The notes under the pieces are model-generated. The model was not told the origin of the DNA. It worked only from the letters and a program-made list of their open reading frames with translations, and did no database searches. DNA of 64,000 nucleotides from a virus (lineage: Duplodnaviria > Heunggongvirae > Uroviricota > Caudoviricetes): IMG/VR virus record IMGVR_UViG_3300029518_000200; one strand, 5' to 3'. The translations under genes were made by a program, and so were the position numbers. Within the stretch, counting starts at the first letter, position 1, and each line of letters starts with the position of its first letter. Of the stretch, positions 37,557-63,719 are shown one piece after another.

Positions 37557-37689
37557 AAATAAAAATATATTCTTACTACTATTATCTTCGTTTCTACCTA
37601 TTTTTATAGGAAGCTTTTGCTAACTCAATATACTAAATTACTTGTAAACAAATAATGTTTTATGCACAAAAAAAAAGAAAGCAATTCGT

Positions 37690-38064
37690 TCACGCTTCCT
37701 TTTCTTTGTATTTCTTTGTCAGATTTCTTATAAGCAGTCCAGTCATTGCAATTATTATTGCAGCATCAATATCTGCCAGCAAATGTTTTGCCATCATAAA
37801 ACCTGTTTTCATTTGTCTGCATACGTTATTCATTATGACTATATTTCCTGTGCAAAACATCATTAAAACAAAATCTGTACCGACAAGTATCATTTTTAAT
37901 TTCGATACACATCCATTATTTATGCAGATTCTTGTGTAAGCAAATAATCCTGTCAGCCTTAAAATAATGGCAACGAAATTATACTGCATCTGCCATGATG
38001 CAAACAAAGCTAACGCTATCAATATAAACTGCAATGCTGTTGCAGATTTTTCATCAACTTTCAT
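37690..38064 (-). CDS. small polytopic membrane protein (GtrA-like?)
   Basis: about 4 TM helices, Lys-rich C-terminus; last gene of a three-gene membrane-protein operon. Confidence 0.35.
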   Translation of the reverse strand: MKVDEKSATALQFILIALALFASWQMQYNFVAIILRLTGLFAYTRICINNGCVSKLKMILVGTDFVLMMFCTGNIVIMNNVCRQMKTGFMMAKHLLADIDAAIIIAMTGLLIRNLTKKYKEKEA

Positions 38065-38444
38065 ACTACTACCACTCCCTTTACGTTTCTTATTATTCCA
38101 AATATGATTAAACTAATTATTAGTGCATACAATACTATATTTTCTATTCTATTCCATTTGCAGTTTTTATCTATAACCCAACAAACATACATTTTCCCGA
38201 TAAAATAATATATAACAGACTGTAATATAAATAGTATCGGATTTGCTGCAAATGCGCCTGCAAAATTCATCTGAGCCATATTAATAAGCATATGGGTTAC
38301 TCCGCAACCGGGGCACTTAAGTCCTGTTATCATTCTGAATACACATGGAACTGCAAAGTGAAAGCGGGCCAACATGTAGTAAGCAAATCCCGCTGCTACT
38401 GCCAGTCCGCCTGCCAACAAGCGTTTAATTTTCAGCATAGTCAT
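38061..38444 (-). CDS. DUF2752-like membrane protein
   Basis: CPGCGVTH motif. Confidence 0.4.
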   Translation of the reverse strand: MTMLKIKRLLAGGLAVAAGFAYYMLARFHFAVPCVFRMITGLKCPGCGVTHMLINMAQMNFAGAFAANPILFILQSVIYYFIGKMYVCWVIDKNCKWNRIENIVLYALIISLIIFGIIRNVKGVVVV

Positions 38445-38760
38445 TAACAGTGTCCTGAAGAATACAATAATTTACAATTCCCAGACCAAAAATCTGAAGG
38501 ACAATAAAAAGTATTGTATGTGATCCACCGTTCTTGAGCTTGTCTACTTTAGCGCCCATTCTGTATGCCCAGTACCAAGAATATATGCCGCATGTAATTA
38601 ATGTAAACAGAAATGCCATTCCTCCACTTGTTGTGTAAGAATCATCAGGTGTAAGCGCGTTTGCATCATTGTTAAGGCATATAAACCAGTAAATTCCATA
38701 CAGGCCGCATGTAATAATGGAAAGCACTACAGCCAATACAATGTTTCTCTTTTTAATCAT
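38425..38760 (-). CDS. DUF4234-like membrane protein
   Basis: CGIYGIYW / CGIYSWYW motifs. Confidence 0.4.
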   Translation of the reverse strand: MIKKRNIVLAVVLSIITCGLYGIYWFICLNNDANALTPDDSYTTSGGMAFLFTLITCGIYSWYWAYRMGAKVDKLKNGGSHTILFIVLQIFGLGIVNYCILQDTVNDYAEN

Positions 38761-38874
38761 ATTTTCAACCTTTCTGAGCCGTCTGCTCGTTTTATTTTTG
38801 TATATGATATATATGGATTTTATAGATTTATCGCAAAAAAAAAGAGCCATACATAAGTACAGCTCTCCTTTTGT

Positions 38875-39615
38875 TTACTTAGAAACCTTTTCAAGAATTC
38901 CCTTAACGAAATCACTTTTAAGAAAAGTTTCTGTATCCTCATCATATTTGGCATTATAACGATGCCAGTAATCACGATGAGTCTGCACAATCTTTTCAGG
39001 ATCATGCTCCATCAGTGCAGAGAATGGAACATATAGATCATGGGTAGAATACGCTGTTTTCTCTGGATTTTCAAAGTATATCCAGTCGTTATAAATGCCA
39101 ACCTCGTAAATGCTGACCTTATATTCTGCCACCCATGGACATCTGCTCAAGAGAAGTTCTCTTGTAACATCAGGTGCCCCAGATACATTCTGATACTGAT
39201 TTGCTACTAGATAAACAGAACCCATATCCTGTTTCTCACGAGACCAGCTGCCACGACTCTCCGTAAACTTGCCCTTTTCATGTCTTAAGAACATTCCTAT
39301 AGAACACTCTTCTGACATAGTGTGAATCCATTGTTCTGAGGTAAGATCACGTTTGCCCATATTGTTTTTGACGGCAATTTCAATCTCCTTGTCAGAAAAA
39401 TACTGACTGAGATACTTATACTGTCTGAAGAACCGCTTTATCATCTCCATTGTGTATGATGAGTCAGCTTTTCTTTTAGCAATATCCGCCGCTCTTTTGT
39501 TAGCTTCGGCCTCTTTCTGTAAACCAACAGCATCTTTCACAAGACGCTGCATTAATTCCTCATCAGAAATGTTAACCCACTTTTTTATAAGCTCTAAATC
39601 CAATAAACTTGCCAT
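38875..39615 (-). CDS. hypothetical protein
   Basis: cassette with class-A box, SD and terminator. Confidence 0.5.
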   Translation of the reverse strand: MASLLDLELIKKWVNISDEELMQRLVKDAVGLQKEAEANKRAADIAKRKADSSYTMEMIKRFFRQYKYLSQYFSDKEIEIAVKNNMGKRDLTSEQWIHTMSEECSIGMFLRHEKGKFTESRGSWSREKQDMGSVYLVANQYQNVSGAPDVTRELLLSRCPWVAEYKVSIYEVGIYNDWIYFENPEKTAYSTHDLYVPFSALMEHDPEKIVQTHRDYWHRYNAKYDEDTETFLKSDFVKGILEKVSK

Positions 39616-39722
39616 AATATCGTCCTCCTTGTTTTTTTTATTTTTTTTGATAAATATAGCGTTATAAATATGGATTTTCGTGACAAAAATAAAAAGGACC
39701 GGAATTTTCCAGTCCTTAAATC

Positions 39723-40235
39723 CTATTCTCTGAATGCTTTCTGCTGATGTTCATTGATAAAAGCAAATACTTTTTCATATTCACTTATGTCTCTTATTGC
39801 AAATGCCCTGTCGCTGCGGTCATTCCAGCAGTCAACTGTTACTGTACCTGTATGTAGTACCTTGTCTGCGAAACTGGTAATTTCCTTTACATGAGCAATG
39901 TCAATATATGGTTTCATTTCCACAGTTGTTGTGATGACACCTGATTTAATATAAACAGCTTTGTCTGTTACCATGTATTCTGTGCACCGTGCTTTCATCC
40001 ACATATAAAATGCATTACACAGATATATGCCGACAGGTATCAGCATAAACAGCATTGCATATAAGCCCCAGCTTTGAGGTTTGATACACTTTAAGAAATA
40101 ACGTAGAAATACTCCATATAAAATAAGAAGAATCAATGTTTTATTCAAAAATGCACACATAAGCACTTTTATAAGAGCCATTCTGCCCTGCCATAAAATG
40201 TTTTCGTCATTGTTCATTTTATTCTGTATTCGCAT
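39723..40235 (-). CDS. membrane protein with bacterial PH (bPH_2/YdbS-like) domain
   Basis: 2 TM helices, then a YMVTDKAVYIKSG...VTV pattern. Confidence 0.45.
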   Translation of the reverse strand: MRIQNKMNNDENILWQGRMALIKVLMCAFLNKTLILLILYGVFLRYFLKCIKPQSWGLYAMLFMLIPVGIYLCNAFYMWMKARCTEYMVTDKAVYIKSGVITTTVEMKPYIDIAHVKEITSFADKVLHTGTVTVDCWNDRSDRAFAIRDISEYEKVFAFINEHQQKAFRE

Positions 40236-40274
40236 AATACTTTCTCCTTCCAATATTTTCTATAAATATGGATT

Positions 40275-41897
40275 TCACAGTTTCTCATATAAATACTGAT
40301 TTTTGCCTTTGTATACCAGCTTATATTTTTCAGGATGTCCTGTAACATATCTATAAAGAGCGTCTGTTGTCGCTTTTACTACATAATATTTTGCATCAAG
40401 CTCATCAACAAGTTTTCCGTATTCCTCTGCTGTGTCTATTTCTTTTATTAGGCCTGTTTTTGTTGTAATACTTCTTTTAATTGTACTATAAGCCGGTAAT
40501 CCATATTCAATATGAACCTGCACACCAAGATTTGTTTCATCATAATCATTTGTGTCAGAGTAAGCAATTGTGTATAGCTCCGGTCTTGCATCCATGAGTA
40601 CTTTAATTCCCTTGTATTCATAATAATTGCCACTATCCCATTGGGTAAATACTCTGTCAGTATTATGTTCTTTTAAATATTCTGCTATTTTAATTTCGTC
40701 TTTGCTTATTGTAGCATTTGGAGTATTCAATGCCTCTTCTGTAGGTTTAAATTCTTTTGTTGAAACAACTGTAGTAATAACTATTAGTAAAAACAAAACA
40801 GCCATCATAAACGTACAGCCAATATAAAACCATTTGTATGCCAGACTTATTTTTACTTCTTTTAATTTTGTCGTTTCAAGATATTTAATAAAATCACTTA
40901 AAACAAACAGTATTCCTATAACATAAAATGACAGCCATTTTATTTGCAATGATATAAGGAGTGTAAATCCCAGATACATAAATATTGTTGAAAATTTAAT
41001 TCTTTTCTTATATATCATGGCTATAAATATCACAAATACCACTATAAATATCAAAAACAGTTCTATTGTTGGTTTCCCAAAGCTTAATGGCTGCTGCTCA
41101 ACTATTGTAATAAAACCGAATACATTATCATGTAAAACTTTAAATACATATAATATGGAATCAGCTCCATATGGATTAATAAAAAGAGATACTGCCATCA
41201 TTAACCATGTAATAAATATTGGTTTATACTGTTTCTTTTTAAAATTGTCGCATAAACTATTTGGAATTTTATCTTTAAATATTTTCTTCATTGGTATCAT
41301 ATACGGAAAAAACACTACATAATGCATTATCCAATATGAAGCATGAATATTTATCTCAATTAATGTGCATAATGGAATTATGAACAGATATTTTGTATTG
41401 CCTGTTTTTATCACTTTTTCTATGCAGATAATCTCCGTCATAATTAGAATAAATGTAAACATCTGAGGACGCAGGTTTATATATCCAAAGCAGATAAGTG
41501 TAATTGCTAACACAATAAGCGTTAATGTTTTATTCCAATTCGAACCTCTTATTTTTAAAAATGTATGCATCGTAAACATCATTCCAATAATGAAAGTTAA
41601 TTCTAATATGCACAGTCCAAGAGAACCTGCCAATTTACTCACTCCTGCTACTATTACACAGTACAGCCAGTTTTGTATCACTATATCCGGCAGTGATCCG
41701 CCCTTAAATGGTGCAAATACAAATGGGTTTGTATGCGGTATACCATGTTTTAAGATATATTTACCATTAGCAAGCAGATAATACAAATCCGTATCCGTAT
41801 AATCAGTGGTAAATATCATTATTATCGCAAACAGCATTATTAACTCCATTGCAAAGAGCAATTTATCTGCATTTATTTTCTTTAATTTATTTTTCAT
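40275..41897 (-). CDS. large polytopic membrane protein, GT-C/YfhO- or GtrC-like glycosyltransferase candidate
   Basis: more than 10 TM helices; overlaps the stop of the upstream GT2 gene. Confidence 0.5.
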   Translation of the reverse strand: MKNKLKKINADKLLFAMELIMLFAIIMIFTTDYTDTDLYYLLANGKYILKHGIPHTNPFVFAPFKGGSLPDIVIQNWLYCVIVAGVSKLAGSLGLCILELTFIIGMMFTMHTFLKIRGSNWNKTLTLIVLAITLICFGYINLRPQMFTFILIMTEIICIEKVIKTGNTKYLFIIPLCTLIEINIHASYWIMHYVVFFPYMIPMKKIFKDKIPNSLCDNFKKKQYKPIFITWLMMAVSLFINPYGADSILYVFKVLHDNVFGFITIVEQQPLSFGKPTIELFLIFIVVFVIFIAMIYKKRIKFSTIFMYLGFTLLISLQIKWLSFYVIGILFVLSDFIKYLETTKLKEVKISLAYKWFYIGCTFMMAVLFLLIVITTVVSTKEFKPTEEALNTPNATISKDEIKIAEYLKEHNTDRVFTQWDSGNYYEYKGIKVLMDARPELYTIAYSDTNDYDETNLGVQVHIEYGLPAYSTIKRSITTKTGLIKEIDTAEEYGKLVDELDAKYYVVKATTDALYRYVTGHPEKYKLVYKGKNQYLYEKL

Positions 41898-42873
41898 TTA
41901 TCCTGCATTCCTTATCTTTTTCCATAAATTTTATTCTAAAATTTTGTCTCTGTCTTACATTGTCACTCTCCTGTATCTGGCCTACAAAGAAAGCTGTAAT
42001 TCCTGCCAACATTAAAAAACATCCTGCTATTAATGTAGGGAACCTCTTTACAAGTCCTGTTTCAAAGTATTCAACAAAGACTGGGACATTAAACAATATT
42101 CCTGCAGCAAATAATATAATGCTTATCAGTCCATAGAATTTAAGAGGCTTGTACAGCCATATCATCATAAAAAGCTGTTTTAAAACTCTTATTCCATCAG
42201 AAATCGTCTGAAGTTTTGACTCGCTTCCTGCTATCCTGTCATGATATTCAATTTTAACATCTGCTGTAGGTATTTTGTTTGCAGCTGCATGTATATTCAT
42301 TTCTGTTTCAATAGAAAATCCTTCTGAAAGAACAGGGAATGTTTTTACAAATCTGTATGAAAACATTCTAAAGCCTGAAAGAATATCCTTGTAATTCTTA
42401 TTAAACATTTTATTGATACTGTTTTTCATAAGCTTGTTTCCAAAATTATGAAACCGTCTTTTATTTTCAGTAAAATAGCTTGTTGACAATCTGTCACCTG
42501 TAACCATGTCAGCCCGACCATTTACAATCATTTCATACATTTCTATGAAACTCTCTACTCCATATGTATTATCACCATCAATCATGCAATAAGCTCTTGC
42601 ATCAATTTCCATAAAAGCCTGCCTGATAACATTTCCCTTGCCCTGTTCAAAACACTGATTGACAGAAACATTAATATCTTTGTTCAGACAGCTCCATTCT
42701 TTTGTTTTTTCAACGGTATTATCTGTTGAATTATTGTCATAAACCCATATGCCAATATCCAGTGGACCATATATTTGATTAAGTTTTACTATTGCAGGCT
42801 TAAGCTGCGTTAGTGTGTCCATAATACTAAGTGCCTCATTATAGCATGGTATTATAACTGCTAAATCTGTCAC
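41887..42873 (-). CDS. GT2 polyprenol-phosphate glycosyltransferase (GtrB/CsbB-like)
   Basis: IIPCYNE, DGDNTY (DxD), two C-terminal TM helices. Confidence 0.7.
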   Translation of the reverse strand: MTDLAVIIPCYNEALSIMDTLTQLKPAIVKLNQIYGPLDIGIWVYDNNSTDNTVEKTKEWSCLNKDINVSVNQCFEQGKGNVIRQAFMEIDARAYCMIDGDNTYGVESFIEMYEMIVNGRADMVTGDRLSTSYFTENKRRFHNFGNKLMKNSINKMFNKNYKDILSGFRMFSYRFVKTFPVLSEGFSIETEMNIHAAANKIPTADVKIEYHDRIAGSESKLQTISDGIRVLKQLFMMIWLYKPLKFYGLISIILFAAGILFNVPVFVEYFETGLVKRFPTLIAGCFLMLAGITAFFVGQIQESDNVRQRQNFRIKFMEKDKECRINEK

Positions 42874-42982
42874 TATTTTTTCTCCTTTTTAAATTTTCTT
42901 ATACGATAAATATGGTTTTTAATAAATACACGATAATAATTGCACGCTTAAAGTTTTGCATGTAGTCTGTACGTATAAAAAG

Positions 42983-43075
42983 GTATCATATTTAAAATTG
43001 ATACTATATTTGTTTTTAGTATCATAATTAAAAATGATACGTTTTATATGTAAGTATCATATTTAGAATTGATAC
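42983..43075 (+). promoter_or_regulatory. three GTATCA-N10-TGATAC palindromes (42983-43004, 43019-43040, 43054-43075) directly upstream of an extended -10 element (tgatataat, 43089-43097)
   Basis: read directly. Confidence 0.7.
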
Positions 43076-43128
43076 GTATTACTGCTTATGATATAATACA
43101 CATATAATATAGAAAGTGAGGACCTGTA

Positions 43129-43632
43129 ATGCCAAAACCTGTTGATGTAGCTGCATGGGATTTTACAAAGAAAATGGAAAATCTTGCAAAAGAAAATGAT
43201 ATATATGCGGTTTGCCTGCATTATAATATAAAAGATAATTCCATTAATCAAAAGCAAAATGAAATATCATATAACATCCTAAAAGATTTATGCGCAAATG
43301 TAGGAGTTAATTTATCAGTATCAGATGATGAACTTTTTCTAAATATTGATGCTGAAAAGTATGTGGCCGTAACACGTCAAACAGCTGGACGCCCAGCAAA
43401 TATTATTTTTAAAGATGATGCTTATTCTGTATATTCATATGCTGATATTCTATACATGAAAAATCAAGGCATGACAGATAATGATGTTGCTAAGAAAATA
43501 AACATGCCAATAGCAACTTTCAAACGTCACAAAAAGAAAATGATGTCATCTGTCTTTGTAAAACGACTGGATAATGGCAAGCTGAATGATATGGAATATT
43601 TAAACAGTCAACTTGAAGGCTTGTCATTCTAA
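43129..43632 (+). CDS. putative DNA-binding protein with a C-terminal helix-turn-helix
   Basis: C-terminal block GMTDNDVAKKINMPIATFKRHKKK; terminator downstream. Confidence 0.45.
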   Translation: MPKPVDVAAWDFTKKMENLAKENDIYAVCLHYNIKDNSINQKQNEISYNILKDLCANVGVNLSVSDDELFLNIDAEKYVAVTRQTAGRPANIIFKDDAYSVYSYADILYMKNQGMTDNDVAKKINMPIATFKRHKKKMMSSVFVKRLDNGKLNDMEYLNSQLEGLSF

Positions 43633-43707
43633 AGTATCTGCCTAAAAATGTGCCCAGATTGGGCAGATAAATAAAAAGAGTACCCAGAACGGATACTCTT
43701 TTTTTTG

Positions 43708-43866
43708 TTTATTCTTTTATGAAAGCTGTATGTTTTCCTGCATGTTCGCAGTTATTACTGCAAACAAGACATCTTTCTTCATACGGCTTCATTCTGGCAT
43801 AATTACAGTACATGCCGGGATTTTCCCGTTGACTATATATATCAGGAACTAACGTTACTTTCTTCA
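43708..43866 (-). CDS. small zinc-ribbon protein (52 aa)
   Basis: SD ataggagg; CxxC..CxxxC; co-transcribed with 43877-44302. Confidence 0.3.
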
Positions 43867-43876
43867 TGGCAGCCTC

Positions 43877-44302
43877 CTATGCAATAAAGTCAAACTTTAC
43901 GCCGCCGACTTTACCCTTTTGAGTTTCTGGATTAAAGTTTTCAATTACCAGAAATTCATCTACTCGGCAGATCCCTGTTTCAAGTTCCCTGTCATTGAAT
44001 GACTCTAAGAAATCTTTACAGTTGCCATCATATATCTCATCGTATTCAGTAGCTAATGGCTCTTCACTGTCACCATATATGATAATATCTTCATTGTCCA
44101 AAATCTTCTGTTTTGGATTTTTAAGTCTTACTACATAGTCACCGTTTATATCATGCTGAAGATGTTCATACGTAACAAGTATATCTGACTTGGACATATG
44201 CACCGGAAAGTCAAAAAATAAAGAATTTAACTCTGTATCATATTTTTTATACTCTGACATTACATGCTCATATAATTCCTGCGGATTTTTTATTATTTCC
44301 AT
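43877..44302 (-). CDS. hypothetical protein
   Basis: start at MEIIKN after SD ggagag; preceded by the 59-bp hairpin element. Confidence 0.45.
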   Translation of the reverse strand: MEIIKNPQELYEHVMSEYKKYDTELNSLFFDFPVHMSKSDILVTYEHLQHDINGDYVVRLKNPKQKILDNEDIIIYGDSEEPLATEYDEIYDGNCKDFLESFNDRELETGICRVDEFLVIENFNPETQKGKVGGVKFDFIA

Positions 44303-44369
44303 ATTTCTCTCCATTCTACCTGCCCGCAAAGGACAGGATTTAAAAACCCATGCCCTTATCGGACAATTA

Positions 44370-44630
44370 TCATAATACAAACCTTACAATTCCAAGATTT
44401 TTAGGAAGTTTCATAAACTCACCTATTCCGCCATGCAATATTTTTCTGGCTTCTGCTTTCGTATATCCAAGATTATCACACCAGTCTGAGCAAAAATCCT
44501 CCCAGTCAGAATACCATGCGCAGATTTCAGGATTAATATTATATCGTCTGGCATGTTTTTCAATTTTCTCTTTAAGCTCATCTGTTACAGTGATATATCC
44601 AGACAGATATTTTACACTTTTTGGGTCCAT
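44370..44630 (-). CDS. hypothetical protein
   Basis: preceded by the second copy of the 59-bp hairpin element. Confidence 0.45.
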   Translation of the reverse strand: MDPKSVKYLSGYITVTDELKEKIEKHARRYNINPEICAWYSDWEDFCSDWCDNLGYTKAEARKILHGGIGEFMKLPKNLGIVRFVL

Positions 44631-44702
44631 ATTTTCTCCATTCTACCTGCCCATAAAGGGCAGGATTTAAAAACCCATGCTCTTATCGGACAAGTTTACA
44701 TG

Positions 44703-46835
44703 TTATTCCCCTATCATCTCAAGGAATTCATCCTCAGAAATAATAGGCACGCCAAGCTCCTTAGCTTTCTTATTCTTTCCTGATGTACTTTCTACATCAT
44801 TATTAATAAGATAGCAAGTCTTTCCTGTTACAGATCCAGTCGCTTTGCCACCCATTTCTTCAATTTTCGCCTGCAGTTCTGCACGGTTCTTAAAGTGATT
44901 GACTGAGCCGGTAATGGCAAACGTTTTGCCGGAAAGAATATCTTTGCCAGCAGATACATCTGCTTCTGCTGGAACCTCGACATCAATCCATCTGAGCAGG
45001 TCATAAACCTCGGGGTTATTTGAGATTCTCCACATCTCATCCAGCAAATCCTTCTCAAATGGAATCCATCCAAGATACCTGCTGCCCCAGTCCCAGAGAC
45101 TGAGCTCAATTTTTTCTCCAATTCCATCTATATCTGTAAAAGTTTTACGATTATAAACATCGTTGAAAAACTTCTTGACATTACCTTTATAGGCCTTATC
45201 GAACAGTTTAGCCTGTCCTTTTCCTACCATAGGAATGCCAAGCGCATGAATGAATGGCACAAATGTTGTCTTACGGCTTATCTGAATTGATTTCCAAATA
45301 TTGTCATATGATTTCTGTCCAAAACCATCCATTGCAGCAATGTTACGCTCAAAAGTATCAAGTCTGTACAGATCTGCAAGCTGCTTAATGAAGCCCTTTT
45401 CAATGAATTTCTCAAGGGTTTTCTCTGACAGACCGACAATATCCATGCAGTCTCTCTCGCAGAAATGTACGAATTTCTTAACCTGCTTTACAGCACAGTT
45501 AGGATTTGTACACATCTCTACTTCAACGTCTCTGTCACCAGAATGTGTAATCATTGGCGATGTTTCCATGCCGCATACCGGACATGTACATGCATGAGAC
45601 TCAGCGTAAGTAAGTTCATCTCCCGGTGTTAGATTCTTATCAATACATGGAATTATCTTATTCGCTTTGAACACTGAAATCTTATCACCGACTCTCAGAC
45701 GCAGTTTCTTGACGATTGATACGTTATGTACGCTCGCTCTTGTAACTGTAGTGCCTTCAAGTTGTACCGGATCAAAGACTGCAACAGGATTAATACGTCC
45801 CGTTCTGCTAGGAGACCATTCAATTTCTCTCAAAGTAGTTTCAACGCACTCATCTGCCCACTTGAAAGCAAAGCCTGTGAGTCTGTTAGGATGATGTCCT
45901 GTAACAGGAAGTGCATCAGCAGTTTTATAATCATCCGATGCAACGACAAGTCCGTCTACAGGATAATCCAGTGTCTCTACTCTGTCAGAGAAACTATTCA
46001 TAACATTGATAATCTGATCCGGTAAATCTGAATCTACATCTGGATTGCTTGAATAAGCTCTTGCAAGTTCATGCTCCACAACACCAAAGCCAAGTCTCTC
46101 AAGCAGTGTCAGTGCGCCAAAAAATGTTGCCGGTACCTCAATCTTGTCATCAGCAGCAGGCTCCATATAAACAAGCTTAAAAGCTTTAAATATAACCTTT
46201 CTGCCTTTAAGTCCCGGTTCCTTCATAGTGATAGTAGAATTTGCAAGATTACGAGGATTTGAATATTCTTCTTCACCTTCTTCCAGATTTGAATTAATTC
46301 TTTCAAATTCTGAATAGGTCATCAGCGCTTCTCCTCTTACTATAAGTTTTCCTTTGAAACCTATGGTCATAGGAATACCTTCGATGTAAGACGCTTGATA
46401 AGTCATATCACTTCCAATCTCACCATTTCCTCGAGTGACGGCCTGTACAAGTCGTCCGCAGCCACCATTTCTGCTACCATCATAGGTTAAACAAAGCGTA
46501 CAACCATCGAGTTTGTGCATTACAACACAGTCTCCACTGGCCGCTTTTGAAAAGACTTTTGGAAATTCGTAAATGTCCTTTGTCTTATCAAGTGACAGTG
46601 CCGGAAACTCATGTCTTACCTTTTTAAGACCATTTCCGCCAATCTCATCTGCACCAACTTTTGATGTAGGTGAATCTGGCAGAATAATTCCTGTCTCTTC
46701 CTCAAGCTGTGCAAGCTGATCAAACATTGTATCCCATTCATGGTTTGACATAATTTCGTCTTTGCCATTGTAGTAGGCATTTGATGCTTCATTTAACTTG
46801 TTAACCAGTTCCTTCATTCTTAGTGTTTTGTCCAT
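44703..46835 (-). CDS. ligA: NAD+-dependent DNA ligase (LigA) with C-terminal BRCT
   Basis: full-length match to the LigA architecture (adenylation, OB, Zn-finger CxxC, HhH, BRCT). Confidence 0.85.
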   Translation of the reverse strand: MDKTLRMKELVNKLNEASNAYYNGKDEIMSNHEWDTMFDQLAQLEEETGIILPDSPTSKVGADEIGGNGLKKVRHEFPALSLDKTKDIYEFPKVFSKAASGDCVVMHKLDGCTLCLTYDGSRNGGCGRLVQAVTRGNGEIGSDMTYQASYIEGIPMTIGFKGKLIVRGEALMTYSEFERINSNLEEGEEEYSNPRNLANSTITMKEPGLKGRKVIFKAFKLVYMEPAADDKIEVPATFFGALTLLERLGFGVVEHELARAYSSNPDVDSDLPDQIINVMNSFSDRVETLDYPVDGLVVASDDYKTADALPVTGHHPNRLTGFAFKWADECVETTLREIEWSPSRTGRINPVAVFDPVQLEGTTVTRASVHNVSIVKKLRLRVGDKISVFKANKIIPCIDKNLTPGDELTYAESHACTCPVCGMETSPMITHSGDRDVEVEMCTNPNCAVKQVKKFVHFCERDCMDIVGLSEKTLEKFIEKGFIKQLADLYRLDTFERNIAAMDGFGQKSYDNIWKSIQISRKTTFVPFIHALGIPMVGKGQAKLFDKAYKGNVKKFFNDVYNRKTFTDIDGIGEKIELSLWDWGSRYLGWIPFEKDLLDEMWRISNNPEVYDLLRWIDVEVPAEADVSAGKDILSGKTFAITGSVNHFKNRAELQAKIEEMGGKATGSVTGKTCYLINNDVESTSGKNKKAKELGVPIISEDEFLEMIGE

Positions 46836-46946
46836 AGTGTTTTCCTCCTTTATTTTATTTATATATGAACATTATAAAGATGGATTTTCTACGCAAAAGA
46901 AAAGGACACTTCAATGTTAAAATGTCCTTTGTAAAGTTTACTATCT

Positions 46947-47450
46947 TTAGAGCAACCCATGATCTTCACAGTAATCCTGCATATGGTCAGCAGTTTCATC
47001 ACCCATATACTTTCTTACCATGTCAACATTAATGCCAGACTCCAGCATATTTTCATATACTTCAGTCTCGTCAACGCTGTGTTCAACTGCATCGTTGAAC
47101 CTTGACTGGATCTCAGCAACCATGTCGGCATCCTGCTCCGTTTCCAGCCACATCATATGATTATCGCCAACAAGTGAGCAGGTAAACAGGATTTCATTGC
47201 CATTTTCATCATAGACAACCATGTCCTCATCACAGCTCTTTAGAAAATTCATTAATCTCTTAACTGTGATTTTATTCTTGCCCGAGCATGATGCCTGTAA
47301 GAAAAGCTTTTTCGGCATTGGAATAAATATGAAAGCTGATTTTTGCATGCCAGACAAATATGCCTCACTGTGAGGTCCGCCAAAGCGAATAACTGCATCT
47401 GCTTCTAAAGTAAGATTATTGATGTGTTCTTTTATTGTTTTTACTGTCAT
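46947..47450 (-). CDS. hypothetical acidic protein
   Basis: class-A cassette. Confidence 0.5.
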   Translation of the reverse strand: MTVKTIKEHINNLTLEADAVIRFGGPHSEAYLSGMQKSAFIFIPMPKKLFLQASCSGKNKITVKRLMNFLKSCDEDMVVYDENGNEILFTCSLVGDNHMMWLETEQDADMVAEIQSRFNDAVEHSVDETEVYENMLESGINVDMVRKYMGDETADHMQDYCEDHGLL

Positions 47451-47550
47451 AATTTTCCTCCTTTATATTGTTTTATTTATATATGACATTATAAAAATGG
47501 ATTTCACACAAAAGAAAGACATCTCAATATTGAGACGTCTTTTTCTTTGT

Positions 47551-48513: not shown

Positions 48514-48565
48514 AATATTTTCCTCCTTTATATTGTTTTTATATATGACAAAACAAAGATGGATT

Positions 48566-53065: not shown

Positions 53066-53210
53066 ATATTCGTCCTCCTTTATTTTTTATATGAAATCTG
53101 CAATAAAGGTGGAGTTTGCACACAAAAAAAAGAGGATGATAAATCATCCTCTTAAAATGCTGTTCCTCCACCTTCATTCATGACTTTATCCTCCTTTACT
53201 TATGTGCTTT

Positions 53211-53915
53211 TTATATTTTCTGATTTCTTAAATTAATTTTCTGCACTTCACCGATAATATTGACTTTTTCAGCAACAAATCTTTGTGTGTGCTTTCCCGT
53301 TTTAGCATTCTTCCTGCCCTGAACGGTCCCTGTCATATCAACCCACGTTCCGGGAGTATATTTTGTATATACTAAGTCCTTTGCGCCGCCATTGGGAAAA
53401 CGCATTCCGGTTGCAGTTGATGATACAAATTCCTTTTCAATAAATGGGAATTTTGTATTCTCTCTCGTATTCTTAATCTTCTTCTTTGTGACTGTTTTAA
53501 CATTGATAATAATGTAATTGTCATTAATAGCCTTTGCCGACACGATCCTGCCTCTATACTGAACATTGTTTAAGTCTTTGGCTTTGTCATCTGCAACAGA
53601 CATCATGTTAAGCCCCCATACTTCAAGATGTTTTCCTCTCTGAGTGTGTCTGTCAACAATATTCTGCAAGACAGCCGTTACTGTTACCCTGTCGCCAATT
53701 TTAAACTGTTTTGGATATGTCTTTGCTTCTGTCTTAAAAAACCTTACATTAATAGTATCACGGCTGTACTGACCATTTCTTTTCTTAAAACGATACTCCC
53801 TGCCATTGTTTCCACATGATAAAAAGAAATCAGTGTAATATTTCTTTTCTACAATATCAAATATCTTACCTCTGAGGTGGACTTCATTATGGAAGTCAAA
53901 CATATTATTTGCCAT
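53211..53915 (-). CDS. hypothetical protein with SSB-like OB-fold patterns
   Basis: GDRVTVTAVLQN and WVDMTGTVQGRKN..KHTQRFVAEKVNII resemble SSB strands. Confidence 0.4.
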   Translation of the reverse strand: MANNMFDFHNEVHLRGKIFDIVEKKYYTDFFLSCGNNGREYRFKKRNGQYSRDTINVRFFKTEAKTYPKQFKIGDRVTVTAVLQNIVDRHTQRGKHLEVWGLNMMSVADDKAKDLNNVQYRGRIVSAKAINDNYIIINVKTVTKKKIKNTRENTKFPFIEKEFVSSTATGMRFPNGGAKDLVYTKYTPGTWVDMTGTVQGRKNAKTGKHTQRFVAEKVNIIGEVQKINLRNQKI

Positions 53916-54020
53916 TTTTCTTATTTCCTTTCGTGTTATTTGTACAATGAATATGGATTTTAATAATAAACAGCAAAAAAAAAGACCGTTACGAACTTAC
54001 ACGTAACGGCTGTGTATTAT

Positions 54021-57035: not shown

Positions 57036-57332
57036 TTATACGGCAGTTTTTGCTGCTGCTTTAGCTACTTTTTTAGCACGGCATCTTTTAGCAGCTTTGA
57101 TGTCATGCTTAATTGCAGACACCAATTCGCCTGTTATAAGCGAAATTATATTACATACAATTTCACCTACAATCAAGCCGCACCAAAGAGCAGCTATTAA
57201 AATTGACCCATACTCAAATGTATGCGTATGAAGCATTGCAATTAATTCTGATATGATGCCGCACACCCACAAAGGTGCACCAAAAAGCATTCCTTTGCAG
57301 AAATTTTTTAAAAATACTTTCAATGTAATCAT
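57036..57332 (-). CDS. small membrane protein
   Basis: class-A cassette. Confidence 0.4.
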   Translation of the reverse strand: MITLKVFLKNFCKGMLFGAPLWVCGIISELIAMLHTHTFEYGSILIAALWCGLIVGEIVCNIISLITGELVSAIKHDIKAAKRCRAKKVAKAAAKTAV

Positions 57333-57724
57333 AAATCATTCCTCCTTTTATGATTGCGTAAAATTAATAAAGTTACCATAAATATGGGTTTTCTTGCAAA
57401 ATAACACAAAAAAAAAGAGGACCGGTTACAGTCCTCTTGATTCCTGTTTTCATACGTCTGCTTTTTAAATGCCGTAGCGGCAAATTCTATTATATCAGCC
57501 AGAGTACCACGTCTATAACACCTGCATAGGCATGGGTGAATGGCTGTATTTTATTTTATTCCCTGATTTTTAATATAGTTTTTTTTTACTACATCCAGTG
57601 AATTTTCACTTACTGTTGCAATAAAATAACTGTCAGATCAAAGATAAAGTTTCCAGTAATATTTTTTAAGCTGTATTTCAATATACTTAAAAAAAAGACA
57701 CCTCAACGAGATGTCCTTTTAAGT

Positions 57725-57868: not shown

Positions 57869-58056
57869 AATTCAAAACCTCCTACTCAAAGTCTGCATTG
57901 TCTGCGTCAACTACTGCATAGCCGTATTTGACAACCATCACTCTCATTTTTGCCATAATATCTTCCTCCTTTACTATTTTATATATGACAGTATAAATAT
58001 GGAGTTTTATGCGTAAAAAAAAAGAACACCTTGTAGAGATGTCCTTTTTTTTGAGT

Positions 58057-58257
58057 TTAAACCTGTCCGTTGACTTTTAGAAAATTATACGCCTGCGTTG
58101 CTGTCATCTGCTGCTGCATCATTACCGGTGCAAGTGTTCCAAATAATGTCAGTTTGCAGTCATAGCAAATTATTTCAGATTCTTTATCTCCAAAAATATT
58201 ATCTACTAAACTCGTTTTTCCACAGCAGGGACAGGTGTTTGGGATTTCTCTAATCAT
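58057..58257 (-). CDS. small zinc-ribbon protein
   Basis: CPCCG...CYDC. Confidence 0.4.
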   Translation of the reverse strand: MIREIPNTCPCCGKTSLVDNIFGDKESEIICYDCKLTLFGTLAPVMMQQQMTATQAYNFLKVNGQV

Positions 58258-58270
58258 GTCAGTTTCCTCC

Positions 58271-59083
58271 TTAAAAGCCTAAATGAATTATCCCGTCAAG
58301 ATAATTCTCAACGTGGTCACGCGTCTCGGATATGGCTCCAATCTTATTGAGTTCATCAATAATCTTTAAGAGCTTATCTTCCGCATCATAACCGCACGAT
58401 GTAAGATTGCCCCGATGGTCAAACGGAATTTTTGCTCCGCACAACGCCAGGATTCTCTCAAGTCCTGATATATTGTCAGAATTGTCAGCAGGAGATGTAT
58501 TTTCTGCTGACAATCTGATAAGCGCTTCCAATATATCCGCCGGAAGTTCATATGGACGATAATCAGTGTCTGAAAACGAATTATCATCAATACTGTAAAC
58601 CGTTGGAGATACTTCAACACAGGTTACTGCATCACAGGCATTGTCTGAATGCAGTTTGTCTGTCGGAATTTCAATGTGCAGTTCTCCCTGCACAGCGTTT
58701 TTTAAGTCCGCATTAGAAAAAATTCCTGTAGCAGCAAATTCTGTCAGAGGCATTGCAAAGTACAGATTTGTGACGCCTGTATCCGTTTTTGCGAGCTCAT
58801 CCATAATAAAGCCTGTATCTGAAATCTCATAATTGAGGCTCTCAATCATGAACCCATAGGTATCTGACAGGTAATCAACAACATCATCATTGATATCATT
58901 AATAAGTTCTGTCATTTTTTCATGGCTCTCTTTTGCCGCTTTAAGCCTGTCTTCTGTCAAAGAGAATTTTTCCTTTGGAATCTCAGTAAGCGTTGGCAGC
59001 AGCATTAACGCTTCTTTTGAAAGTGTGTCATCGTCCTGAACATCCCACAAGATGTTTGTTGCATATAATTTTATTTCTGCCAT
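58271..59083 (-). CDS. hypothetical acidic protein
   Basis: class-A cassette. Confidence 0.5.
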   Translation of the reverse strand: MAEIKLYATNILWDVQDDDTLSKEALMLLPTLTEIPKEKFSLTEDRLKAAKESHEKMTELINDINDDVVDYLSDTYGFMIESLNYEISDTGFIMDELAKTDTGVTNLYFAMPLTEFAATGIFSNADLKNAVQGELHIEIPTDKLHSDNACDAVTCVEVSPTVYSIDDNSFSDTDYRPYELPADILEALIRLSAENTSPADNSDNISGLERILALCGAKIPFDHRGNLTSCGYDAEDKLLKIIDELNKIGAISETRDHVENYLDGIIHLGF

Positions 59084-59199
59084 AATGTTCTCCTCCTTTA
59101 TTATTTTTATATGACGTAATAAATATGGAGTTTATATGCAGACAAAAAAGAGAACACCCTGTAAAGATGTCCTCTTTTTATTTAAATTTTAAGATTAAA

Positions 59200-59658: not shown

Positions 59659-60141
59659 TTACTGTTCTGGCAGCATATTGTGTTCTTTAAATGAGAACAT
59701 CTCCTTCGGCGATATTATGATGTGGTCCAAAAGCGGAATTGACATCATATTCGCTGCGCTTGCCAACTTACTCGTACTTCGGATATCGTCTGCCGAAGGC
59801 GTACAGTCATCACTCGGATGATTATGTGCTACGATAAAACTTACAGCTCCGCAGATACAGAGCCTTACAAAAATCTCTCTTGTGTTCATGAGACATGTCT
59901 GAGCTGAACCATGGAACACATCAAAAACTCCTATCGGTTTGCACTTTGTGGTGAGCGCGATGAGGTATACATGTTCCTCTGCCTGATATGAAGCCCTGAA
60001 CACCTCATCCAGTGCAGTCTTCACCTTCTGTGGCGAATTTAGATTGTCTACTGCTGTGCAGTTTCTGCTATTCTCTTTTACAAGAACGGCCTTGCAGTCC
60101 TTGCCTACTTCGATATTGTACTTTGTTATTCTCATATTCAT
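59659..60141 (-). CDS. RadC-like JAB/MPN domain protein
   Basis: IVAHNHPSDDCTPSADDI...LLDHII. Confidence 0.7.
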   Translation of the reverse strand: MNMRITKYNIEVGKDCKAVLVKENSRNCTAVDNLNSPQKVKTALDEVFRASYQAEEHVYLIALTTKCKPIGVFDVFHGSAQTCLMNTREIFVRLCICGAVSFIVAHNHPSDDCTPSADDIRSTSKLASAANMMSIPLLDHIIISPKEMFSFKEHNMLPEQ

Positions 60142-60352
60142 TTCCTCCTTTATTCAAAAAAATATATCAGTTAAAATGAATATGGAGTTTGCACAAAACA
60201 TATGCTTTCCGGGTACCACGCCTTTACTGCATTGCAGATAATATTTTTATCAAGTTCCGGCTCGGTGAACTACTCGGCTACAAGTAACTGAGTAGTTCCC
60301 TTGTCGTATCCATTGTTTTCATTGACATAAAAATTTCTTTTTTTAACCTGAT

Positions 60353-61102: not shown

Positions 61103-61118
61103 TTTCTTTCTCCTTTCT

Positions 61119-61562: not shown

Positions 61563-61658
61563 AATTAATTCCTCCTGTTTTTAATGTTATATATATAATA
61601 TTTCTTTTCCTGTTTTTGTCCAAAGAAAAAGACAGGAAATTTCCTGTCTTAATCTCGT

Positions 61659-62582
61659 TTACTGGGCTGTCTGCACTACAGGTGCTGAAAGACCTAATCT
61701 GTCACAGATTTTGTCACACAACTCATGCACCTTTTCAAACAGCACGCATCCCCTGCCAGTATTAATGGCAGCTTCGCCGCAAACACCACTTCCTGCAAAT
61801 TGGTCAAGAACAATCTCTTCCGGTTTTGTCAGGTACTCAATCAGTGTCTCAAACAGTTCAACAGGCTTTTCTGATTGCGCGATTCTGTCTTTCTTTGATA
61901 CCTGCTGATAGTCAAATTCTGTTGGCAGCATTCCGGCTGCACCTGACATAAAACGTGTAGGATTACCATTTGCATCTAGTCCGCGCTGTTTATCAGGCCG
62001 CAGTTTTCTTGCTGGTCCAAGCGAGAATATCAGACAGTCTTCGGTATTCTTTGCTTTACGTCCGGTATTTGAAACAAATGTACCTTTCTTCCAAGGTACC
62101 TTGCTATAATACTGGAACCCTGCAGCCTCTGCCATTTTCTTAAGCCTGTACAGATATTCGTAATTAGTTGCGGACTCGGCAGGAATGATTTCGCACAAGA
62201 AACTGCCTTGTTTCAATACCCTTGCCTTTTCAATGAAATCAGCAGGTGTATATTCAAAACAGTCATACTGCGCAAAGTTTCTTGAACCGCCTTTGTTGGC
62301 CTTCTTATCAAGCCACGGATGGTCTGTGATAATACAGTCAATTGACTTATCTTCAAGCATTGACAAGTCTCTGCCATCACCTTCAATCAGCACGCAGTCC
62401 TGATCCTTTGCAACATATACACCTTTTCTTACACGTAAGAATTTTACACCTAAATTTTCGTATATACGTGCTCTGACAGACTCATTATTTACACCAGTAC
62501 ACTTAGCATAAGCCTGCTTGAGAGTGAATTCCATACCTTTAAATGCTGACAACAATCTGTCAGCGATGCTTTTGTTTGCCAT
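61659..62582 (-). CDS. beta-class N6A/N4C DNA methyltransferase (orphan)
   Basis: CIITDHPW (motif IV) preceding DQFAGSGVCG (motif I). Confidence 0.7.
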   Translation of the reverse strand: MANKSIADRLLSAFKGMEFTLKQAYAKCTGVNNESVRARIYENLGVKFLRVRKGVYVAKDQDCVLIEGDGRDLSMLEDKSIDCIITDHPWLDKKANKGGSRNFAQYDCFEYTPADFIEKARVLKQGSFLCEIIPAESATNYEYLYRLKKMAEAAGFQYYSKVPWKKGTFVSNTGRKAKNTEDCLIFSLGPARKLRPDKQRGLDANGNPTRFMSGAAGMLPTEFDYQQVSKKDRIAQSEKPVELFETLIEYLTKPEEIVLDQFAGSGVCGEAAINTGRGCVLFEKVHELCDKICDRLGLSAPVVQTAQ

Positions 62583-62680
62583 AATGTATTCCTCCTTTAT
62601 ATTATTATTTATGACTACAATAAATATGGCTTTTAATAAAAAAGAAGCGTGGCCAAAATAAGTCACACTTCTCTTTTTGT

Positions 62681-63433
62681 TTACCGAACCATTTCAAATG
62701 GTCTTGCATAGCAGGTCATCTTGCTTCCAAGAACATCTGCTGAAACAGATAATGTATACAGACCTGATGGCGCCTGTCTTTCAATATGAGGTTCAGTAAG
62801 TTCAACATCCTTGTCTTTCTGAACCATCATCTGAAGCAGTTTTGTCCGGCATTCCAACACATCTCCAGTGTATGTTCGGTCGTAAATCTCGCCATTGTGT
62901 ACTGTTGTTATCAGCCACTTGCACCGATTGTATTCAGCAAAAACTTTATACTTTTCAGTATATGATTCCATCTGTTCTTTAGTCACATTTGTTTTTGCCA
63001 AATCAGCAGGCGTAAGTTTTCCTCTAAACAGCCACTCATACGGATTGTCGGTATAAGTGACAGGAATTTTTGGTATTAGCCTTGATTCAATAAACGCTTT
63101 TACGTCTATATCTGTCAGCATTCTTATGATGGCATTATCTCTGCCGTATCTGACATCAAATATTGGACAGCCTTCAATGTCAACAATCCTCATGCCGGGT
63201 CTCATGAATTCTAAATCAACGATGTTACAGAGCAGACCATCATACAGCTTCTTTACTGTCATACCAATTCCTGCACTAGACCTGAATACAAGAGCTGCCT
63301 CATTTGGATTATCTGTAAACGAAAATCCAACTACAGGGCAGAATGTATCATTTTCCATCCTGCCAACTTTCATACAGCCAAACCCTGCATCAATCTTCTT
63401 ATTTAATACCTCTAATATCTGCTTAATCGTCAT
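62681..63433 (-). CDS. hypothetical protein
   Basis: class-A cassette. Confidence 0.5.
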   Translation of the reverse strand: MTIKQILEVLNKKIDAGFGCMKVGRMENDTFCPVVGFSFTDNPNEAALVFRSSAGIGMTVKKLYDGLLCNIVDLEFMRPGMRIVDIEGCPIFDVRYGRDNAIIRMLTDIDVKAFIESRLIPKIPVTYTDNPYEWLFRGKLTPADLAKTNVTKEQMESYTEKYKVFAEYNRCKWLITTVHNGEIYDRTYTGDVLECRTKLLQMMVQKDKDVELTEPHIERQAPSGLYTLSVSADVLGSKMTCYARPFEMVR

Positions 63434-63475
63434 AATATCTTCCTCCTTTATTTATTATTTTATTTATGACTATAA

Positions 63476-63490
63476 AATAAATATGGGTTT
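63476..63490 (-). promoter_or_regulatory. class-A box (gene-direction AAAAYYCATATTTAT); representative of about 29 copies
   Basis: see findings for the full coordinate list. Confidence 0.6.
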
Positions 63491-63719
63491 TAATGGCAAA
63501 CAAAAAGCTCTCTATCTTTAGAGAGCTTTTTTAAGTTTACTCCGAGCCTTAGGACTCAAAGCCCCAACACTCATTGTCGAACTGTTTAAAAGTGAGAGTC
63601 TGACTGACGTCATATTACTATTGTACTAACGTTTCATCTCTTTTCGTCAGCAAGCGCTGGATAGCTGTCGTTGTAGTCGATAAAATAGCCGTCAGTGTGT
63701 ATTAATATGAATCTTACAG

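Follow-up and report, generated by a model that had tools for sequence, protein, structure and literature searches.

We analysed a 64,000-nt stretch of DNA (hereafter the window) from the IMG/VR record IMGVR_UViG_3300029518_000200. About 34 genes of the window have a 15-21-nt promoter box in front of them. This box, AAAAYCCATATTTAT-NN-TRTA, is probably the -10-proximal core promoter of an autoregulated sigma factor encoded by the same element, a probable megaplasmid linked to Agathobacter rectalis. The most likely reader of the box is a very divergent sigma factor encoded by the element, which thus seems to control its own transcription.

The box was counted in two ways. First, the window was scanned for AAAAYYCATATTTAT with at most one mismatch, and 100 dinucleotide-preserving shuffles of the window served as the null. 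The scan returned 22 matches against 0.17 expected, and none of the 100 shuffles reached 22. Second, a 21-nt weight matrix made from 141 distinct promoters (threshold of at least 10 bits, first-order Markov null) detected 34 sites in the 64-kb window, where 1.0 was expected. It added the sites at 7131, 16373, 31849, 34301 and 34996, all on the plus strand. An earlier reading of the same DNA (the original prediction) had listed 29 coordinates for the box; all 29 hold one, within the matrix sites. Non-coding DNA makes up 14.7% of the window and holds 33 of the 34 sites (binomial P ~1e-26), and the remaining one lies inside an over-extended open reading frame (ORF) call. Each AAAAYYCATATTTAT copy is located just 5' of a Shine-Dalgarno (SD) sequence and a start codon, on the same strand as the gene. 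At every site but 7774-7794(-), the box is gene-oriented and the start codon follows 11-43 nt past the 21-mer, usually with AAGGAGG. The box is a genuine motif, placed and oriented as a promoter, and roughly 45% of genes have one. The 34 sites are as follows.

7131-7151, plus strand: weak box-like site (11.8 bits, the lowest score, doubtful), 5' of gene 7184-7693
7774-7794, minus strand: orphan box (14.3 bits) with no downstream gene, back-to-back with the sigma-A-like promoter at 7796
12350-12370, plus strand: box variant GGAACCCATATTTAT, 5' of helicase/PD-(D/E)XK gene 12401-14386
16268-16288, minus strand: box (29.3 bits), 5' of BspA LRR gene 14429-16225
16373-16393, plus strand: box variant, 5' of PDDEXK_2 gene 16427-17206, divergent from 16268
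19090-19110, minus strand: box, 5' of BspA LRR gene 17304-19052
20976-20996, minus strand: box (30.2 bits), 5' of BspA LRR gene 19163-20932, back-to-back with the sigma-A-like promoter at 20999
25996-26016, plus strand: box, 5' of Mob_Pre relaxase gene 26049-27224
27287-27307, plus strand: box, 5' of RecJ-like gene 27342-29126
30628-30648, minus strand: box, 5' of SSB-domain gene 29746-30588
31803-31823, minus strand: box, 5' of 5'-3' exonuclease gene 30706-31770
31849-31869, plus strand: box, 5' of gene 31913-32962, divergent pair with 31803 (25 nt between the 15-nt boxes)
34247-34267, minus strand: box variant, 5' of gene 33003-34235, SD beginning 3 nt past the 15-nt box
34301-34321, plus strand: box variant, 5' of gene 34345-34506, divergent pair with 34247, palindrome 34276-34291 between them
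34996-35016, plus strand: box variant, 5' of type IV secretion system (T4SS) coupling-protein-like gene 35050-36213
38801-38821, minus strand: box, 5' of DUF4234 membrane-protein gene (start codon ~38760) and its operon to 37690
39658-39678, minus strand: box, 5' of gene 38875-39615, module 87% identical to the 49915 module
40256-40276, minus strand: box, 5' of bPH_2 gene 39723-40235
42900-42920, minus strand: box, 5' of glycosyltransferase gene 41887-42873 and gene 40275-41897
46868-46888, minus strand: box, 5' of NAD-dependent DNA ligase gene 44703-46835, whose orthologue in locus L001 has no box
47485-47505, minus strand: box, 5' of gene 46947-47450
48547-48567, minus strand: box, 5' of DUF7666/pentapeptide gene 47551-48513, whose L001 orthologue has no box
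49915-49935, minus strand: box, 5' of gene 49255-49872
51462-51482, minus strand: box, 5' of guanylate-kinase/LRR gene 49980-51440, SD beginning ~12 nt past the box
52351-52371, minus strand: box, 5' of NlpC/P60 gene 51552-52319
52718-52738, minus strand: box variant, 5' of gene 52419-52688
53097-53117, minus strand: box variant, 5' of gene 52781-53065
53941-53961, minus strand: box, 5' of gene 53211-53915
57372-57392, minus strand: box, 5' of membrane-protein gene 57036-57332
57987-58007, minus strand: box, 5' of a small ORF starting ~57945
59113-59133, minus strand: box, 5' of genes 58271-59083 and 58057-58257
60170-60190, minus strand: box variant, 5' of RadC gene 59659-60141
62614-62634, minus strand: box, 5' of N6/N4 DNA methylase gene 61659-62582
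63471-63491, minus strand: box (27.2 bits), 5' of gene 62681-63433

The box array goes on past the end of the window. The orphan box 7774-7794(-) faces the terminator of the convergent gene 7184-7693; it could make a short antisense RNA or be a relic. A perfect 16-bp palindrome, CAGGCAATATTGCCTG, at 34276-34291 lies midway between the divergent boxes 34253(-) and 34301(+) and is a possible operator.

Base conservation was determined from 365 pairs of orthologous promoters, which were picked by flank similarity so that the presence of the box did not bias the choice. The substitution frequency was 0-0.055 at box positions 0-14, and at most 0.005 at 11 of these 15 positions. It was 0.11-0.20 at positions -8 to -1 (-3 excepted) and at +15/+16, and it fell back to 0.02-0.06 at +17 to +21. 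A TRTA is fixed at +17 to +20. Given the low substitution at both 0-14 and +17 to +21, we took AAAAYCCATATTTAT-NN-TRTA as the functional unit. Outside the box, the 257 distinct instances that we collected are more than 20% different. The box positions thus appear to be under purifying selection.

The position of the box relative to the gene and to its neighbours bears on where transcription would start. The SD begins just 8-13 nt past the box in 9 of the 141 distinct promoters. The back-to-back boxes of divergent pairs are 25 or 33 nt apart (31809/31849 and 34253/34301). In addition, the T-run of a terminator usually starts 7-22 nt 5' of the box, which leaves no room for another promoter in between. 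Because of the short box-SD gaps, the tight divergent pairs and the nearby T-runs, the box is predicted to adjoin the transcription start, that is, to be -10-proximal and not a -35 region. The original prediction had described a directional, promoter-like module with no canonical -35, and this held: across the 141 promoters the mean TTGACA match was at background, at most 2.2 of 6, at every offset. TTG peaks at -16, in 19 of 141 promoters (13%), and one promoter family has a perfect TTGACA 18 nt 5' of the TATTTA of the box (17 nt 5' of ATATTT). No TGn of an extended -10 is present, box positions 5-7 being CCA or TCA, and no dyad symmetry of the box was seen by eye. Sigma-70-type sites occurred at chance level (100 vs 84.7 +/- 9.6; 24 vs 20.4 +/- 4.2). 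Judged by these features, the box does not look like a canonical sigma-A (sigma-70-type) promoter.

Several other readings of the motif were tried and rejected. The box as a -35 with a second, downstream box as the -10 was ruled out by the short box-SD distances and the variable position of the second box. The sigma-E -35 consensus is KMATATT; a sigma-E model with this -35 and a -10 CATA at ~14 nt was ruled out on spacing, with 8-13 or 18-19 nt from ATATT to the start of the second CATA. A reading as an extracytoplasmic function (ECF)-type AAC...CGT promoter failed on its spacing, judged by eye. On the reverse strand, ATGACA as a -35 would lie just 2 nt from the putative -10. An Rfam gathering-threshold scan of the window gave no match, and the motif string returned only unrelated primer matches in the literature.

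The original prediction had proposed that an element-encoded sigma factor might be found elsewhere on the replicon. Such a factor was found on the same element, with a box 5' of its gene. We scanned ~150 element proteins, about one-third of the element, against Pfam (outside the window, ORFs of at least 150 aa). One of them, a 231-aa protein at 2701-3396 of locus L122 and also present in locus L020, matches Sigma70_r4 at 32.4 bits (cut-off 24.1). It also matches TIGR02937 over residues 43-227 at 56.5 bits (cut-off 42.9). No other sigma factor or RNA polymerase was detected among these ~150 proteins. In an AlphaFold model from a 12-sequence alignment, a disordered linker of ~50 aa separates two confidently predicted helical domains, ~10-105 and ~160-230. 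The protein is therefore best described as a predicted, highly divergent two-domain member of the sigma-70 family (sigma-2 plus sigma-4). An exhaustive HMMER search of 1.84 billion representatives returned ~10 full-length relatives, 25-37% identical, and a word-based protein search found nothing beyond the protein's own cluster. No close homologue was present in PLSDB or INPHARED, where the PLSDB tblastn search gave one weak match, in Acetoanaerobium.

In L122 and L020, the sigma gene occurs together with five to six boxes and a topoisomerase III gene. The exact protein was found on 506 contigs, and the largest of these has the same size (330,954 bp) as the largest contig for three window proteins; a 313,201-bp scaffold likewise carries it. 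The sigma gene and the boxes of the window lie on the same replicon, the identity of the records being taken from their equal sizes and not base by base.

The surroundings of the sigma gene are also conserved. On its 5' side there is always a small gene with a cold-shock domain, together with a cluster of Tad/Flp-pilus-like genes (T2SSE, T2SSF, CpaB/SAF) (L122 2400-2700; L143, L144, L150, L153 and L156-158). In the A. rectalis element, a gene for a 720-aa protein with no Pfam match and then topoisomerase III follow on its 3' side.

We compared the DNA upstream of the sigma gene among all traceable lineages. The sigma gene of the A. rectalis element has AAAACCCATCTTTAT directly 5', and the same AAAACCCATCTTTAT precedes the sigma gene of L149. 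The sigma-type genes of L151/L152 are preceded by AAAATCCATCTTTGT and AAAACCCATCTTTGT, those of L150/L153 by GAATCTCATATTTAA and AAATCTCATATTTAT, and L154/L155 carry two back-to-back AAAACCCATATTTAT. The core YCATMTTTR was found 40-60 nt 5' of the start codon in 10/10 sigma or sigma-like genes from six loci and five lineages. These ten are the sigma gene of the A. rectalis element, those of all traceable full-length relatives (25-37% identical) and the neighbouring sigma-like genes. The primary sigma-gene promoters share TTAGTG ~16 nt 5' of CAT. Other genes in the loci of the relatives also have the YCATMTTTR core. At a box frequency of ~45%, ten out of ten, of which ~8 are independent, is unlikely to arise by chance (~0.002, a rough estimate).

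Two further features of these loci were recorded. In four of them, two sigma-like genes, close or divergent, each lie behind a box (L150 10001-11532; L151 166-2604; L153 8830-10360; L154 1947-3662). In L150 and L153, the upstream half of the box is GAATCT/AAATCT, not AAAAYC, and may co-vary with the sigma protein.

From the sequences above, we propose the following mechanism. The element-encoded sigma factor would associate with the core RNA polymerase of the host and guide it to the box. The box would serve as an extended -10-type element, with CATATTTAT as the -10 proper and AAAAYC just 5' of it. Transcription would start about 5-7 nt past the box, near TRTA, with little or no sequence-specific -35. 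A minority of genes have TTTGGACAAAA-N13/14-TAYTATATA and would be read by the housekeeping sigma factor of the host. Since the sigma gene has a box itself, positive autoregulation is implied. Since the units of one to three genes are closed by intrinsic terminators, they would be insulated and could be shuffled. We infer that this sigma factor, and not another factor, reads the box, and we likewise infer the start position and the autoregulation; as a whole, this proposal is the reading that we consider probable.

Several points weigh against it. The main internal difficulty is that a sigma factor with region 4 should read a -35, and none is generally conserved. The box is the commonest promoter type here, so that finding it at sigma genes is weaker evidence than a rare motif would be. 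A sigma gene driven solely by its own promoter would need a separate trigger. The presence of two sigma-like paralogues in related elements makes the reader of each promoter class ambiguous. About one-third of the element was inspected. Finally, the 3' half of the box resembles the -10 of Firmicute mother-cell promoters, which makes a host factor conceivable.

Such a host factor could be a mother-cell sporulation sigma (sigma-E/sigma-K) or a sigma-A that reads a '-10 only' promoter with the help of a T-tract. The mother-cell -10 box of C. difficile is CATATTAT/CATATAAT, and CATATTTAT equals it plus one extra T (PMC3789822). The promoter family with a perfect TTGACA 18 nt 5' of TATTTA and the TTG peak at -16 in 19/141 promoters would also fit a host sigma. 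However, neither an 'ATA' (sigma-E) nor an 'AC' (sigma-K) -35 is present at 16-18 bp, the region from -20 to -8 is just T-rich, and there is no TG as in an extended -10. With its invariant AAAAYC half and its near-identity over 15 bp, the box far exceeds what members of a host regulon share, and canonical sigma-A-like promoters form a separate class in the same array. Box plus SD never occurred more than once per species genome, except in one metagenome-assembled genome (MAG) that holds box contigs, although the pattern was stringent and looser sites may be missed. In five lineages, moreover, the element's own sigma gene stands behind the box. We consider a host sigma factor quite unlikely as the reader. 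A different possibility is that the box is mainly the site for an element-encoded global regulator, repressor or activator, and overlaps weak sigma-A promoters whose -10 would be the variable CATAWW/AT-rich stretch downstream. p576/EGeRS2 and KorA/KorB exemplify the repressor type, and T4 MotA is an activator that replaces the -35. Repeated regulatory sequences at many operons, with a repressor that controls itself, are known from conjugative plasmids of Firmicutes (PMC8708921). The second CATAWW is indeed enriched downstream, and taking that stretch as the -10 would put the box at about -36 to -22. Nevertheless, with the SD 8-13 nt past the box in 9/141 promoters, a downstream -10 would place the start at or beyond the SD. 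The box is also asymmetric and strictly gene-oriented, and conservation in a fixed register is confined to it, apart from TRTA (+17 to +20), which is no -10 hexamer. The position of CATAWW varies by more than 10 nt, and it is missing in half of the promoters. No candidate regulator or repressor was found among the window proteins by Pfam. This explanation seems unlikely as well.

We also considered that the box acts in RNA, as a processing, stabilising or protein-binding site in the 5' untranslated region (UTR) of read-through transcripts, with the hairpins as stability elements. Strict co-orientation with the gene would fit such a role, and the element encodes cold-shock-domain and ProQ-C-like proteins. 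Against it, divergent pairs share nothing but back-to-back boxes 25-33 nt apart, so that their promoters must lie there. In addition, the hairpins have canonical T-runs, Rfam gave no match, and in distant lineages boxes directly follow the terminator of the sigma gene. An RNA signal is therefore very unlikely. The last alternative, that the motif is a by-product of AT-rich intergenic DNA or of the recent duplication of one segment, is already refuted. The window has a GC content of 36%, and some modules share the 5' UTR as well (67/77 positions). However, dinucleotide shuffles gave 0.17 against 22 observed. Outside the box, more than 20% divergence separates the 257 distinct instances, and flanks diverge where the box does not. 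Furthermore, the box is kept in elements whose sigma proteins are only 25-37% identical. The AT-bias artefact that the original prediction itself had named as its refutation thus fails.

The layout of the array from 37.6 to 64 kb was compared with the original description of nearly every gene as an independently transcribed single-gene cassette. This was too strong: 19 boxes serve 36 genes, the transcription units comprise one to three genes each, and several box-less genes have canonical sigma-A-like promoters instead. A hairpin followed by a T-run lies within ~10-30 nt 5' of 20 of the 34 boxes, and of 15 of the 19 in this array. Terminator-like sites were enriched three- to four-fold over shuffles (34 vs 9.3 and 13 vs 3.7 expected). 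The second CATAT-containing box of the original prediction was confirmed in part. CATAWW was enriched (75/141 promoters vs 16.7 expected), starting at 20-25 or 30-31 from the start of the box; it occurs in about half of the promoters at a varying position, so that a two-box 'half-site' layout is not general. TRTA is the more general downstream feature.

Two upstream regions, 39630-39680 and 49870-49935, had been called identical. They are in fact 87% identical (67/77, from the box to codon 3), and the proteins encoded downstream are indeed unrelated (blastp E = 0.08). The duplication of a module ahead of unrelated genes is thus seen at the 39658 and 49915 modules. Sub-families of promoters that share the whole 5' UTR are 39658-39600/49915-49857, 46868/47485/48547, 57987/59113 and 62614/63471. 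Sharing of promoter plus 5' UTR points to duplication or recombination of whole modules.

Box-less genes with an intergenic region of their own have canonical promoters. Among these, we recognised a conserved second promoter class, TTTGGACAAAA-N13/14-TAYTATATA, which is sigma-A-like (TGGACA-16-TAYTAT); five exact 11-mers were found against ~0.1 expected (a rough estimate). Since both classes occur in the same array, the box represents a class distinct from the sigma-A-like promoters. The two stand back-to-back at 7780 and 20982. A further second-class promoter was seen at ~3488 of L122. The sites in the window are listed below.

7796-7835, plus strand: second-class promoter
12233-12270, plus strand: second-class promoter
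20999-21036, plus strand: second-class promoter
56936-56900, minus strand: second-class promoter, motif at 56926
61624-61588, minus strand: second-class promoter, motif at 61614
near 49202-49218, minus strand (~49218-49180, minus strand): second-class variant
56215-56187, minus strand: strong extended -10 site
43069-43097, plus strand: strong extended -10 site
59599-59570, minus strand: strong extended -10 site

We next describe the element itself. By Pfam, the window encodes a Mob_Pre relaxase, two T4SS coupling-protein-like proteins, a PcfJ-like protein and a tyrosine recombinase. Genes of DNA-metabolism, anti-restriction and surface type code for RecJ, an SSB-domain protein, a 5'-3' exonuclease, an NAD-dependent ligase, dUTPase, RadC, Lar, DUF3850, DNA methylases, a macro-domain protein, NlpC/P60 and four BspA-type LRR proteins; the three LRR genes of the original prediction are BspA-type LRR_5. 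Other loci of the element carry topoisomerase III, a VirB4-like ATPase, anaerobic ribonucleotide reductase, UvrD, thymidylate synthase, Thg1, PARG and Tad-pilus genes. The window proteins fall in clusters of 200-800 near-identical sequences, whose largest carrying contigs are repeatedly 310-338 kb. For two of the proteins, close variants (90% clusters) are annotated in Agathobacter rectalis M104/1. We conclude that the window is part of a ~310-338-kb conjugative extrachromosomal element. It is linked to A. rectalis, and metagenomes of the human gut commonly contain it. The element is probably a megaplasmid.

The original prediction had likened the region to a phage early or host-takeover region, or to a plasmid leading-region anti-defence island. 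By Pfam, the replicon is indeed conjugative, and its cargo is partly anti-defence-like. The box, however, is no signature of a leading-region or host-takeover island: it is also found 5' of relaxase, RecJ, SSB-like, exonuclease, coupling-protein-like, VirB4-like, NrdD, UvrD and sigma genes. The phage reading was not borne out either. No phage mark was seen in the window or the fetched loci, and the box plus GTCATA pattern gave 0 matches in IMG/VR, which lends no support to a phage origin.

The element had few counterparts in the databases. No match to 24 kb of the window was returned by megablast against PLSDB, the relaxase protein had no relative in GTDB species genomes or IMG/VR, and no description of an A. 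rectalis megaplasmid was found in the literature. INPHARED held one unannotated 38-kb record, with ~3.7-3.9 kb aligned to 43.6-48.5 kb of the window and devoid of boxes, and no counterpart otherwise. This record, locus L001 (MT835533.1, 'Bacteriophage sp.', from human faeces), shares window 43630-48503 at its positions 6934-10665. The ligase and DUF7666/pentapeptide genes are 83-88%, and up to 93%, identical there, whereas the upstream regions differ and have no box. The shared genes have changed elements and received other promoters.

To define the specificity of the box, we searched 185,579 species, each represented by one genome (596 Gb in all), for the composite pattern box-N15-45-AAAGGAGG. 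Only 20 stretches matched, 16 of which were single matches in unrelated taxa, as chance predicts. The other four were from two MAGs with two matching contigs each. The matches of the Actinomycetota MAG (one per contig, 51-53% GC) were treated as chance. 'Uncultured Eubacterium sp. UMGS1550' was the sole MAG with clustering, having two contigs with two box plus SD matches each, and at least one of these contigs (NODE_581) is also among the gut-metagenome matches. In metagenome contigs, mostly from the human gut, at least 119 stretches matched the composite pattern. Together with the box-less L001 genes, this makes the box a property of the element rather than of its genes or its host. Loci L124 and L126 (USBB01000032.1 and USBB01000017.1) are box contigs, apparently of the element, that are binned in UMGS1550, a species representative.

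Some other features of the window were noted. Two separate genes, 6271-7077(+) and 35050-36213(+), match different portions of the T4SS coupling-protein profile (positions 91-313 and 252-346), and they may be two paralogues or one split gene. The tyrosine recombinase gene is located at 36267-37370. Unusual cargo includes a methyl-accepting chemotaxis signalling-domain protein and an SPFH/Band-7 protein at 8211-9650(+) and 9813-10859(+), and a guanylate-kinase N-terminus fused to BspA-type LRR repeats at 49980-51440(-). At least 25 copies of a ~21-bp palindrome, GGTATYAnnAATATATGATACY, occur at 24240-25440 with spacings of 36/88/128/238 nt. They lie in the ORF-free stretch 24197-26049, just 5' of the relaxase gene, and as an array resemble iterons, a centromere or an origin.

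Mobile elements that bring their own sigma factor and promoter class are known. Here, the element stands out for its size and prevalence, its promoters for their strictness and number, and the sigma family for its orphan status. The closest parallel, and an experimentally characterised one, is SigN (ZpdN) of the B. subtilis plasmid pBS32, which reads a plasmid-borne regulon including its own promoter (PMC6751061). In both cases, a plasmid sigma-70-family protein is associated with a promoter repeated at many genes of the plasmid, some of them for nucleotide metabolism and DNA replication. The sigma gene stands behind a promoter of its own class, which for the element would likewise mean positive feedback, and no chromosomal targets are apparent. 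Nevertheless, no sequence relationship to SigN was detectable (the PLSDB tblastn search gave the one weak Acetoanaerobium match, assuming that pBS32 is in PLSDB). SigN promoters are bipartite, TTTACG ... AGATAWA (PMC6751061), whereas the box is a contiguous 15-21 nt with no conserved -35. The sigN gene also has LexA-repressed sigma-A promoters, and none was recognised 5' of the element sigma gene. The element has about four times the size of pBS32 and appears to use the box as its majority promoter.

Phage sigma factors with promoter classes of their own include T4 gp55 (late promoter TATAAATA), phiEco32 gp36, and SPO1 gp28 and gp33/34. Like these, the sigma factor of a mobile element would redirect the core polymerase of its host to promoters that are nearly identical. 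Both gp55 and gp36 need no more than one -10-region element and no -35, as is proposed here. Unlike a phage, the replicon is conjugative (relaxase, VirB4-like, coupling-protein-like and topoisomerase III genes), and no phage structural genes were seen. The similarity to Bacillus phage sigma factors is weak and confined to region 4, and there is no sign of temporal classes. With autoregulated ECF-type (group 4) sigma factors, the motif conserved 5' of the sigma gene serves to predict the target promoters. The element sigma factor shares with them the two-domain sigma-2/sigma-4 layout and a conserved motif directly 5' of its gene across homologues. It differs from them in lacking an AAC -35/CGT -10, in its long disordered linker and in a regulon of dozens or hundreds of promoters on one replicon, and no anti-sigma gene was recognised alongside.

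Repeated regulatory sequences at many small variable operons of a Firmicute conjugative plasmid are also known from the pLS20 family, as EGeRS1/EGeRS2 (PMC8708921). The Lar, orphan methylase, RadC, SSB-domain and macro-domain cargo and the uniform gene orientation recall establishment or leading regions (PMC8708921, PMC11541004). However, EGeRS1 is 400-600 bp long with inverted repeats, and EGeRS2 combines a strong sigma-A promoter with the operator of a repressor (PMC8708921); the box is unlike both. The single-stranded DNA (ssDNA) promoters of F-like leading regions (Frpo-type) are long hairpins (PMC11541004), whereas the box is linear, unstructured and 15-21 nt long. The hairpins beside it are short GC-rich stems with T-runs, that is, terminators of the upstream genes and not ssDNA promoters. 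Moreover, unlike EGeRS or leading-region modules, the box is also present at conjugation, replication and surface-protein genes elsewhere on the element.

Although its proteins occur on hundreds of assembled contigs, the element is not in the plasmid and phage databases that were searched. The box would serve as an easy sequence marker by which to recognise the element, its relatives and its transcription units in metagenomes. Cassettes that move between elements keep their coding sequence and swap their promoters. If the proposed reading of the box is true, a ~20-bp promoter with an information content far above that of normal bacterial promoters, together with a small dedicated sigma factor, would explain how an element of this size coordinates or insulates expression. 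For work in Lachnospiraceae, a family that is difficult to engineer, the pair would also offer an orthogonal sigma/promoter system as a genetic tool. More tentatively, the whole element may be transcriptionally autonomous, with the orphan sigma factor, whose family has no characterised relative, driving most genes, among them those for conjugation, DNA metabolism, surface LRR proteins and anti-defence cargo, from more than 100 near-identical, terminator-insulated promoters in a bistable on/off manner, and with cargo plugged in behind the box. In the human gut, Agathobacter (Eubacterium) rectalis ranks with the most abundant producers of butyrate. If this autonomous-replicon reading, which we regard as possible but doubtful, is true, the element would represent a plasmid counterpart of a phage developmental programme in an abundant gut bacterium.

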